In this document: piece by piece, positions 28,985 through 42,488 of the stretch
Position numbering within the stretch: position 1 is the stretch's first letter
How the letters are laid out: each line of letters starts with the position of its first letter
From: Nemertoderma westbladi
Taxonomy: Eukaryota; Animalia; Xenacoelomorpha
Direction of reading: 5' to 3'
Assembly: GCA_032718475.1 (NCBI GenBank)
Contig: JAUCBJ010007579.1
Location: 1-42,488 of the forward strand
Length of the DNA: 42,488 bases
Made by a program: the position numbers and the translations under genes
Notes under the pieces: model-generated
Databases searched by the model: none
Seen by the model: the letters and a program-made list of their open reading frames with translations, nothing else
What the model was told of the DNA's origin: nothing

Positions 28985-29222
28985 CTTTGTCTAAGTCTAA
29001 CAATACCCCGACCACGCTGCCCTTGGCGACCCCACCGTCCGTTCGCGAACTGTGTATGTTGTCCGTCATAAACCAACTGCGACCAGAATCGATGTACATA
29101 GACCAGGCTCGTTGGTCCTTCCCTAACATAACGTCCTTACAGACATCAAAACGGGAGACCCCAAATGCCGGGTCGGGATTGTTGTCGTATCTGTCGACAG
29201 TAAACTCCCAGTAGTGAACACC
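28985..29222 (-). CDS. TRIM9: TRIM9/TRIM67-like, penultimate coding exon (SPRY core)
   Basis: Acceptor ttgttccAG|GGT and donor AAAG|GTGTGT; 238 nt; [52 protein letters not shown]...GVLLDLDK. Confidence 0.95.
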
Positions 29223-32200
29223 CTGGAACAACAATAACAACCAATAGTAAACTACCAGTAGTGTAACTGTACACCCTGGAACAATAACAACCAATAGTAA
29301 ACTACCAGTAGTGTACACCCTGGAACAATAACAACCAATAGTAAACTACCAGTAGTGTAACTGTACACCCTGGAACAATAACAACCAATAGTAAACTACC
29401 AGTAGTGTACACCCTGGAACAATAACAACCAATAGTAAACTACCAGTAGTGTAACTGTACACCCTGGAACAATAACAACCAATAGTAAACTACCAGTAGT
29501 GTACACCCTGGAACAACAATAACAACCAATAGTAAACTACCAGTAGTGTAACTGTACACCCTGGAACAATAACAACCAATAGTAAACTACCAGTAGTGTA
29601 ACTGTACACCCTGGAACAATAACAACCAATAGTAAACTACCAGTAGTGTACACCCTGGAACAATAACAACCAATAGTAAACTACCAGTAGTGTAACTGTA
29701 CACCCTGGAACAATAACAACCAATAGTAAACTACCAGTAGTGTACACCCTGAAACAACAATAACCACCAATAGTAAACTACCAGTAGTGTACACCCTGGA
29801 ACAATAACAACCAATAGTAAACTACCAGTAGTGTAACTGTACACCCTGGAACAATAACAACCAATAGTAAACTACCAGTAGTGTACACCCTGGAACAATA
29901 ACAACCAATAGTAAACTACCAGTAGCAAACACCCTGGAACAACAATAACAACCCATAGTAAACTACCAGTAGCAAACACCCTGGAACAATAATACCAACC
30001 CATAGTAAACTACCAGTAGCAAACACCCTGGAACAATAATAACAACCAATAGTAAACTACCAGTATAGTAGTGTACACACTGGAACAATAATAACAACCA
30101 ATAATAATCTACCAGTAGCAAACACCCTGGAACAAAAATAACAACCAATAGTAAACTACCAGTAGCAAACACCCTGGAACAATAATAACAACCCATAGCA
30201 AACTACCAGTAGCATACACCCTGGAACAAAAATAACAACCAATAGTAAACTACCAGTAGCAAACACCTTGGAACAATAATAACAACCCATAGTAAACTAC
30301 CAGTAGCAAACACCCTGGAACAATAATAACAACCCATAGTAAACTACCAATAGCAAACACCCTGGAACAAAAATAACAACCAATAGTAAACTACCAGTAG
30401 CAAACACCTTGGAACAATAATAACAACCCATAGTAAACTACCAGTAGCGTACACCCTGGAACAATAATAACAACCAATAGTAAACTACCAGTAGCAAACA
30501 CCCTGGAACAATAATAACAACCCATATTAAACTACCAGTAGCAAACACCCTGGAACAATAATAACAACCAATAGTAAACTACCAGTAGTGTACACTCTGG
30601 AACACGTTCGTGGGGTCTTCGCGCAGCACGAAGTGAGCAAAGCCTTTAGCATATGGGTACCATTAACGAGTTGTCTGCCGTTAGTCAGAAGTCTTCAACA
30701 CAATACTCGTCCTCCTCTTGTGCCTCGTTGTGTTCGTTCGTTTTTGACGAAACTTCATATTCTTTCTAAACTTTTGACGGACTACATAGATACCAAGTTT
30801 CGTTTAATTTCATCATGAAATAACCGAGTTATTAGCGATCAAAAATTTACGACAGACGACGACGACAGACGACGACGACAGACGACGACGACAGACGACG
30901 ACGACGACGACGACAGACAACTCGCCAATGGCACCCATATGCTAAGGCTTCGCTCACTTCGTGGCTCGCCCCACAATAATAACAACCAAAAGTAAACTAC
31001 CATAGTAGTGTACACCCTGGAACAACAATAACAACCAATAGTAAACTACCAGTAGTGTACACCCTGGAACAATAACAACCAATAGTAAACTACCATAGTA
31101 GTGTACACCCTGGAACAACAATAACAACCAATAGTAAACTACCAGTAGTGTACACCCTGGAACAATAATAACAACCAATAGTAAACTACCAGTAGTGTAC
31201 ACCCTGGAACAATAATAACAACCAATAGTAAACTACCAGTAGCAAACACCCTGGAACAAAAATAACAACCAATAGTAAACTACCAGTAGTGTACTCCCTG
31301 GAACAATAATAAGAACCAATAGTAAACTACCAGTAGCAAACACATTGGAACAATAATAACAACCCATAGTAAACTACCAGTAGCAAACACCTTGGAACAA
31401 TATTAACAACCCATAGTAAACTACCAGTAGCAAACACCCTGGAACAATAATAACAACCCATAGTAAACTACCAATAGCAAACACCCTGGAACAATAATAA
31501 CAACCCATAGTAAACTACCAGTAGCAAACACCCTGGAACAATAATAACAACCAATAGTAAACTACCAGTATAGTAGTGTACCTGTACACACTGGAACAAT
31601 AATAACAACCAATAATAATCTACCAGTAGTGTACACCCTGGAACAATAATAACAACCAATAGTAAACTACCAGTAGCAAACACCCTGGAACAAAAATAAC
31701 AACCAATAGTAAACTAACAGTAGCAAACACCCTGGAACAATAATAACAACCCATAGTAAACTACCAGTAGCAAACACCCTGGAACAATAATAACAACCCA
31801 TAGTAAACTTCCAGTAGCAAACACCATGGAACAATAATAACAACCATTAGTAAACTACCAGTATAGTAGTGTACCTGTACACACTGGAACAATAATAACA
31901 ACCAATAATAATCTACCAGTAGTGTACACCCTGGAACAATAATAACAACCAATAGTAAACTACCAGTAGCAAACACTCTGGAACAATAATAACAACCCAT
32001 AGTAAACTACCAGTAGCATACACCCTGGAACAAAAATAACAACCAATAGTAAACTACCAGTAGCAAACACCCTGGAACAATAATAACAACCCATAGTAAA
32101 CTACCAGTAGCATACACCCTGGAACAAAAATAACAACCAATAGTAAACTACCAGTAGCAAACACCCTGGAACAATAATAACAACCCATAGTAAACTACCA

Positions 32201-40700: not shown

Positions 40701-42488
40701 TATCGCGAACCACGCCACCTGTAAGTAAGTTACGGAACTTATTATATCGCGAACCACGCCACCTGTAAGTAAGTTACGGAACTTATTATATCGCGAACCA
40801 CGCCACCTGTAAGTAAGTTACGGAACTTATTATATCGCGAACCACGCCACCTGTAAGTAAGTTACGGAACTTATTATATCGCGAACCACGCCACCTGTAA
40901 GTAAGTTACGGAACTTATTATATCGCGAACCACGCCACCTGTAAGTAAGTTACGGAACTTATTATATCGCGAACCACGCCACCTGTAAGTAAGTTACGGA
41001 ACTTATTATATCGCGAACCACGCCACCTGTAAGTAAGTTACGGAACTTATTATATATCGCGAACCACGCCACCTGTAAGTAAGTTACGGAACTTATTATA
41101 TCGCGAACCACGCCACCTGTAAGTAAGTTACGGAACTTATTATATCGCGAACCACGCCACCTGTAAGTAAGTTACGGAACTTATTATATCGCGAACCACG
41201 CCACCTGTAAGTAAGTTACGGAACTTATTATATCGCGAACCACGCCACCTGTAAGTAAGTTACGGAACTTATTATATCGCGAACCACGCCACCTGTAAGT
41301 AAGTTACGGAACTTATTATATCGCGAACCACGCCACCTGTAAGTAAGTTACGGAACTTATTATATCGCGAACCACGCCACCTGTAAGTAAGTTACGGAAC
41401 TTATTATATCGCGAACCACGCCACCTGTAAGTAAGTTACGGAACTTATTATATCGCGAACCACGCCACCTGTAAGTAAGTTACGGAACTTATTATATCGC
41501 GAACCACGCCACCTGTAAGTAAGTTACGGAACTTATTATATCGCGAACCACGCCACCTGTAAGTAAGTTACGGAACTTATTATATCGCGAACCACGCCAC
41601 CTGTAAGTAAGTTACGGAACTTATTATATCGCGAACCACGCCACCTGTAAGTAAGTTACGGAACTTATTATATCGCGAACCACGCCACCTGTAAGTAAGT
41701 TACGGAACTTATTATATCGCGAACCACGCCACCTGTAAGTAAGTTACGGAACTTATTATATCGCGAACCACGCCACCTGTAAGTAAGTTACGGAACTTAT
41801 TATATCGCGAACCACGCCACCTGTAAGTAAGTTACGGAACTTATTATATCGCGAACCACGCCACCTGTAAGTAAGTTACGGAACTTATTATATCGCGAAC
41901 CACGCCACCTGTAAGTAAGTTACGGAACTTATTATATCGCGAACCACGCCACCTGTAAGTAAGTTACGGAACTTATTATATCGCGAACCACGCCACCTGT
42001 AAGTAAGTTACGGAACTTATTATATCGCGAACCACGCCACCTGTAAGTAAGTTACGGAACTTATTATATCGCGAACCACGCCACCTGTAAGTAAGTTACG
42101 GAACTTATTATATCGCGAACCACGCCACCTGTAAGTAAGTTACGGAACTTATTATATCGCGAACCACGCCACCTGTAAGTAAGTTACGGAACTTATTATA
42201 TCGCGAACCACGCCACCTGTAAGTAAGTTACGGAACTTATTATATCGCGAACCACGCCACCTGTAAGTAAGTTACGGAACTTATTATATCGCGAACCACG
42301 CCACCTGTAAGTAAGTTACGGAACTTATTATATCGCGAACCACGCCACCTGTAAGTAAGTTACGGAACTTATTATATCGCGAACCACGCCACCTGTAAGT
42401 AAGTTACGGAACTTATTATATCGCGAACCACGCCACCTGTAAGTAAGTTACGGAACTTATTATATCGCGAACCACGCCACCTGTAAGT
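34787..42488 (-). repeat. Intronic 44-bp near-homogeneous tandem array, >=175 copies, runs off the window; monomer = 32 nt intron end + first 12 nt of exon 34798
   Basis: The - strand unit is GCGATATAATAAGTTCCGTAACTTACTTACAG|GTGGCGTGGTTC; the last copy continues into the true exon (GTGGCGTGGTTCTCATTG). Confidence 0.98.

Follow-up and report, generated by a model that had tools for sequence, protein, structure and literature searches.

What lets a gene live with satellites built from its own splice acceptors, and how do such satellites arise? The question is raised by a contig of the xenacoelomorph Nemertoderma westbladi (JAUCBJ010007579.1), whose whole analysed stretch of 42,488 nucleotides we call the window. 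In it, two consecutive introns of a TRIM9/67 gene carry tandem arrays whose units straddle the acceptor, the junction between the end of the intron and the start of the following exon. We consider it probable that both are ordinary local duplications, tolerated as splicing uses the last, real copy; this was observed for exon B and would apply likewise to exon A.

Two acceptor-side arrays in a TRIM9/67 gene

Three exons of the gene, here called A, B and C, lie on the minus strand together with the two arrays (the contig of run X4 is described below):

34787..42488, minus strand: 44-bp acceptor-side array (TRF period 44, 174.5 copies, 99% matches)
34673..34798, minus strand: exon A, TRIM9/67, PRY region, with VAWF at its start; the terminal 44-bp copy takes in its first 12 nt
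34168..34672, minus strand: 5' part of the A-B intron, single-copy, with a 7-mer at 34177
29199..34167, minus strand: ~47-bp acceptor-side array (TRF period 47, 105 copies, 84% matches; ~5 kb)
~30604..30974, no strand assigned: insert of ~370 bp interrupting the 47-bp array; it contains a microsatellite and inverted repeats of ~55 bp that are 89% alike
28985..29222, minus strand: exon B, TRIM9/67 SPRY; the terminal 47-bp copy takes in its first 24 nt, and the acceptor of exon B is used in the X4 contig
28560..28984, minus strand: B-C intron, 425 nt, GT-AG, without junction array; absent from the X4 contig
28411..28559, minus strand: exon C, last coding exon of TRIM9/67, with the stop at its end, followed by 3' UTR

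The exons have GT-AG ends and, when joined, form a single open frame that terminates in a stop. The first-pass annotation had assigned the gene to TRIM9, and its PRY-SPRY region is indeed closest to TRIM9/67: exon B matched TRIM9 (E 8.6e-38) and TRIM67 (E 7.7e-36) in the PDB as well as the SPRY family of Pfam, and TRIM9 proteins with 68-73% identity were the top named matches among the best 120 of 863 in a protein search. No TRIM9 of the same species, and nothing above 73% identity, was found among these best 120 of 863 matches. Judged on the C-terminal PRY-SPRY exons within the window, the gene is probably a class I TRIM (TRIM9/TRIM67), whose RING, B-box, coiled-coil, COS and FN3 domains would be encoded by upstream exons beyond the window.

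The 44-bp unit comprises the last 32 nt of the intron, AG included, and the first 12 nt of exon A, and the 47-bp unit the last 23 nt of the intron and the first 24 nt of exon B. That the real exon is the terminal copy of each array, as had been proposed, was borne out, with the last junctions (34798 and 29222) running into the open exons A and B. The 44-bp array holds 173 decoy junctions and is highly uniform: AG is kept in 172 of them, 150 of the 173 units are identical, and 153 of the 172 AG-bearing decoys match the real acceptor exactly over at least 30 intron bases. It continues past the end of the window (>7.7 kb is seen), so that its far end and the upstream exon lie outside. By pattern search, the 47-bp array has 96 decoy junctions, with AG kept in 82. 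The earlier description of this array holds, with the correction that it is broken by the ~370-bp insert and has irregular units near the exon (44, 50 and 53 bp, within an overall range of 44-58 bp). The insert is likely a small mobile element; its end motif recurs at 995-1025 and 12273-12301 of the window. Over both arrays at least 254 decoys carry AG. The third intron (28560-28984) had been described as free of an array, which agrees with TRF, where only a weak 15-bp repeat appears, away from the intron ends.

The 47-bp array in a second sample and the spliced transcript

The stretch was present in four (X1-X4) of eight sequencing runs, none of them recorded as RNA, and was compared over 28250-29300. 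X1 was left out of the comparison as possibly the window's own source; X2 and X3 represent one other sample from one study, and X4 a separate, third study (P3). In the unique part, up to 15 letters separate X2 and X3 from the window; the depth of the 47-bp unit is several times that of single-copy sequence (159 vs 23 and 403 vs 65), and X3 contains a tandem back-joint of one 47-bp period. The raised depth and the one-period back-joint show that an independent sample, too, has the 47-bp repeat in multiple tandem copies, and since it occurs there with its own variants, the 47-bp array is not an assembly artefact.

X4 gave a single contig, 3023 nt long, from which the B-C intron is missing and which covers neither introns nor array. 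The contig leaves exon B at its first bases, and the only place to which its loose end maps is the end of exon A, without an additional unit between them. X4 was taken as RNA-derived because the contig skips a GT-AG intron and joins exon B to exon A without intron cover. We read it as a transcript using the terminal 47-bp acceptor, so that the junction of exon B could be mapped as had been suggested, to the end of exon A; this is one contig, contigs drop rare isoforms, and low decoy use is compatible with it.

The gene is thus transcribed and the 47-bp array real. The first-pass annotation had itself raised the possibility of assembly artefacts or an untranscribed pseudogene, and that the arrays are largely artefactual, or the locus dead, now appears very improbable. 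The 99% uniformity of the 44-bp array and its extension past the window would suit an artefact, and the sample evidence covers the 47-bp array only, for which this reading is largely refuted; however, structured variants, higher-order repeats and the inserted element speak against collapse or inflation, and the intact frame and the spliced transcript against a pseudogene.

Relation to known splice-junction repeats

The first-pass annotation did not recognise a named class of elements here, but such repeats have been described in amphioxus as 'mirages', and human donor-side cases exist (available text of PMC3087553, PMC3902484 and PMC1557585). The TRIM9 arrays are a large case of this known kind. 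Their units span the intron-exon boundary, the authentic junction is terminal, many but not all copies keep AG (172/173 and 82/96), and at exon B splicing goes to the authentic site, as seen in one X4 contig in which rare isoforms would not be visible.

According to the sections available to us, amphioxus mirages occur in Adh3, the globins BflGb6 and BflGb9, troponin C and PGBD5, and leave splicing undisturbed (PMC3087553, PMC3902484); their boundary units escape homogenisation, and it was proposed that mirages can lead to intron positions that are shifted or new (PMC3087553). As far as these sections describe them, the likeness to TRIM9 is close, with minisatellite-like tandem copies across an intron-exon boundary, splice signals in many but not all copies, boundary copies spared homogenisation and normal splicing kept (here seen at exon B). 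BflGb6, too, is acceptor-side, its units joining the 3' end of the intron to the 5' part of the exon. The difference lies in scale and position: the published clusters are small, with 3 and 6 units in BflGb6, whereas the TRIM9 arrays have ~100 (5 kb) and >170 (>7.7 kb) and sit at two consecutive acceptors of one gene.

The human junction minisatellites covered in the accessible part of PMC1557585 (the F7 IVS7 37-bp VNTR, IFI6 (6-16), CBS IVS13, LMNB2 and PDGF intron 4) likewise have a first or last monomer that spans the boundary, identical pseudo-sites and normal use of the exon-proximal site; in F7, on the donor side, the exon-proximal copy is preferred. They are, however, donor-side with 5-25 copies, whereas the TRIM9 arrays are acceptor-side with far more, and in some of them (IFI6, CBS) the nearest pseudo-sites are used. 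Internal tandem repeats at exon-intron boundaries have also been reported in human duplicated genes (PMC2812944, as far as available). These share with TRIM9 the variable tandem repeats at such boundaries, but belong to segmental-duplication paralogs whose gene structure they alter.

Choice of the terminal acceptor

All 82 AG-bearing decoy junctions of the 47-bp array run into a stop before exon B, and a stop is reached from all 172 of the 44-bp array, assuming that the upstream exon ends in phase 0. Among 225 AGs examined at the 47-bp array, the real one included, the sole upstream AG that gives an open frame is at 29345, and it is not at a junction. Exon definition, as established for splicing in general, is the likely and simplest explanation for the choice of the terminal acceptor, which would be preferred because only there do a full exon and a donor follow, the decoys carrying 12-24 nt of exon. 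Occasional use of a decoy would meet a stop and lead to nonsense-mediated decay, and rare decoy use would therefore cost little.

The copies are most likely tolerated clutter, because at exon B, the only place where a junction could be checked, the transcript runs directly into the real exon. Of the two explanations first offered, tolerance because the extra copies are spliced out is upheld at exon B, where X4 uses the terminal acceptor with no extra unit; for exon A we infer the same. A 'poison-decoy' design was rejected because a long array of non-triplet units can hardly avoid stops, and the count of 172/172 for the 44-bp array also presumes phase 0. Recursive splicing by an AG|GT ratchet was unsupported: the 44-bp junction does read AG|GT, but as a donor it is weak, matching 6 of 9 positions of the consensus vs 8 of 9 at both real donors.

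Birth and growth of the arrays

The same 7-mer marks either outer end of the 47-bp array: one copy lies at 34177, in the distal flank, the other at 29209, within exon B, and the two are in register with the 47-bp period. Around the array the exact 7-mer occurs only these two times, while a one-base variant is found in 91 internal copies. A comparable match at lag 47 was seen in 29 of 20363 single-copy 12-nt windows, and the alignment of the distal flank to the 47-bp unit had p 0.03 vs shuffles and 0.008 vs the window background. Instead of pre-existing microhomology, the distal flank may just as well represent an old unit that has decayed; on both readings the event is a local DNA duplication.

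In the model of Haber and Louis, according to the available text of PMC3389668, minisatellites are born between flanking direct repeats of 5-10 bp. The 47-bp array shares with it the 7-bp direct repeat at its outer ends, in register, but differs in that one base of the 7-mer is changed in the internal copies and that the flank is perhaps a decayed unit. The pattern also agrees with the sparing of boundary units from homogenisation described for amphioxus (PMC3087553). Slippage or unequal exchange between such short direct repeats would duplicate ~45 bp across the acceptor. To judge from the unit structure, unequal exchange would then expand and homogenise the array while sparing the boundary copies, in a satellite-prone genome, and a small mobile element may later have inserted into the 47-bp array. 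The birth of an intron by duplication of the A-B intron was unsupported, its 5' 500 nt being unique sequence.

Junction arrays and the other repeats of the window

Large arrays make up 51% of the window, and three of the five touch no identified exon. TRF also gives the following repeats:

16600-24473: 55-bp satellite, 143 copies, GC ~60%, with long higher-order duplications
25614-26510: 33-bp satellite, 27 copies, with stop-free frames of >300 codons on both strands
4989-5381: 3.7 copies of a 107-bp repeat (95% matches); a weak partial copy lies immediately upstream, at 4942-4976

Under uniform seeding, the probability that at least 2 of 5 large arrays fall on a junction is 0.002 with 5 junctions and 0.007 with 10, for a window picked post hoc. 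Two junction arrays had been called unlikely by chance, and the low values agree; because of the post hoc choice, P 0.002-0.007 neither proves nor dismisses enrichment. Mere tolerance alone predicts no excess over plain intron DNA. An excess would be expected if a mutational process coupled to transcription or splicing, by way of R-loops or RNA-templated repair, duplicated intron-exon junctions in preference to other sites, making such arrays commoner than other minisatellites. The finding that one gene has two of the five large arrays on its acceptors (at the P given above) and the recurrence of mirages across several amphioxus genes favour this explanation, which we nevertheless hold to be unlikely: the window was selected post hoc, the units are plain genomic duplications that contain intron sequence rather than spliced copies, the 7-bp flanking repeat fits slippage at the DNA level, and three other arrays of the window lie off known junctions. 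The 7-bp direct repeat and the off-junction arrays fit the generic birth of minisatellites. Among the matches listed from a mainly open-access literature, our search found no pertinent published genome-wide study of repeat enrichment at splice junctions.

The stop-free frames of the 33-bp satellite are probably a by-product, because its unit length is a triplet multiple. The end of the 55-bp satellite runs into a broken frame (24535-24744, minus strand) that presumably resembles the reverse transcriptase end of a retrotransposon; neither this frame nor the array had a match in Pfam or Atlas. An origin of the 55-bp array in such a retrotransposon end was therefore set aside. Long G runs (14-22 nt) are frequent in intergenic and intronic DNA of the window, for example at 3357-3376, 26649-26663 and 34564-34585. 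Two intronless frames, native genes or retrocopies, were also found:

1318-2148, minus strand: Band 7 / prohibitin-like frame
15194-15700, minus strand: myosin regulatory light chain frame

Several long frames between 6458 and 12085 (minus strand) had no confident assignment in Pfam and are likely a decayed DNA transposon, and a LINE-type endonuclease fragment has a weak Pfam match (E 0.0014) at 7311-7595 (plus strand).

Intron phase before exon A

The terminal acceptor of exon A (34798) is in phase 0. In three of three distant orthologous loci from metagenome contigs, with 46-66% identity, the intron before VAWF lies inside the Val codon, in phase 1 (L001:501, L002:1671 and L003:1229), a difference that speaks against the simple reading for exon A. 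A junction array is absent from all three of these loci; as all are distant, this says nothing of close relatives. Vertebrate isoforms have V, D, G or A (G-starting) directly behind the LQT-SE/PE exon end in 83/83 matches from 120 proteins, and M and V alternate before AWF, by which the vertebrate intron before VAWF is probably in phase 1 as well. One copy of the array is relevant here:

34799..34842, minus strand: penultimate 44-bp copy, the sole acceptor that would keep the TRIM9 frame open should the upstream exon end in phase 1

For phase 2 the open acceptor is 34886, and the 44-bp unit thus offers acceptors in all three phases. The 44-bp array might then be partly exonised: with a phase-1 upstream exon, the terminal acceptor would be one base out of frame, and use of the penultimate copy would add 15 residues before VAWF. 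Such exonisation is suggested by the Val-codon introns of the distant loci, by the G-starting residues and the M/V alternation of vertebrates, as expected of phase 1, by 34842 being the only open acceptor for that phase, and by inserts at the corresponding spot in vertebrate isoforms. We think it unlikely. It implies an ancestral single-copy junction that was out of frame, the penultimate copy equals the array consensus and has no sign of coding constraint, a nearer identical acceptor would need to be skipped, unlike at exon B, an open stretch of 15 codons is common by chance, and the gene has other intron positions absent from L001. A one-base intron shift or a lineage-specific phase-0 intron before VAWF is plausible. 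From the sequences compared, the lineage-specific phase-0 intron seems more likely than exonisation, because the ancestral junction needed a frame, the copy is undiverged and other intron positions also differ from those of L001.

Implications

There is accordingly a small chance that the locus has caught a mirage moving an intron boundary, the penultimate copy restoring the frame and placing 15 residues between FN3 and PRY-SPRY. If true, a working acceptor in that copy would directly support the route from mirages to shifted or new introns that the available text of PMC3087553 proposes. Duplication targeted to junctions genome-wide would, if true, raise the importance of the TRIM9 arrays. With at least 254 AG-bearing decoys, the locus puts acceptor choice to an extreme test in nature, and it shows that mirages can reach the size of kilobase satellites while the conserved neural gene around them stays unbroken.
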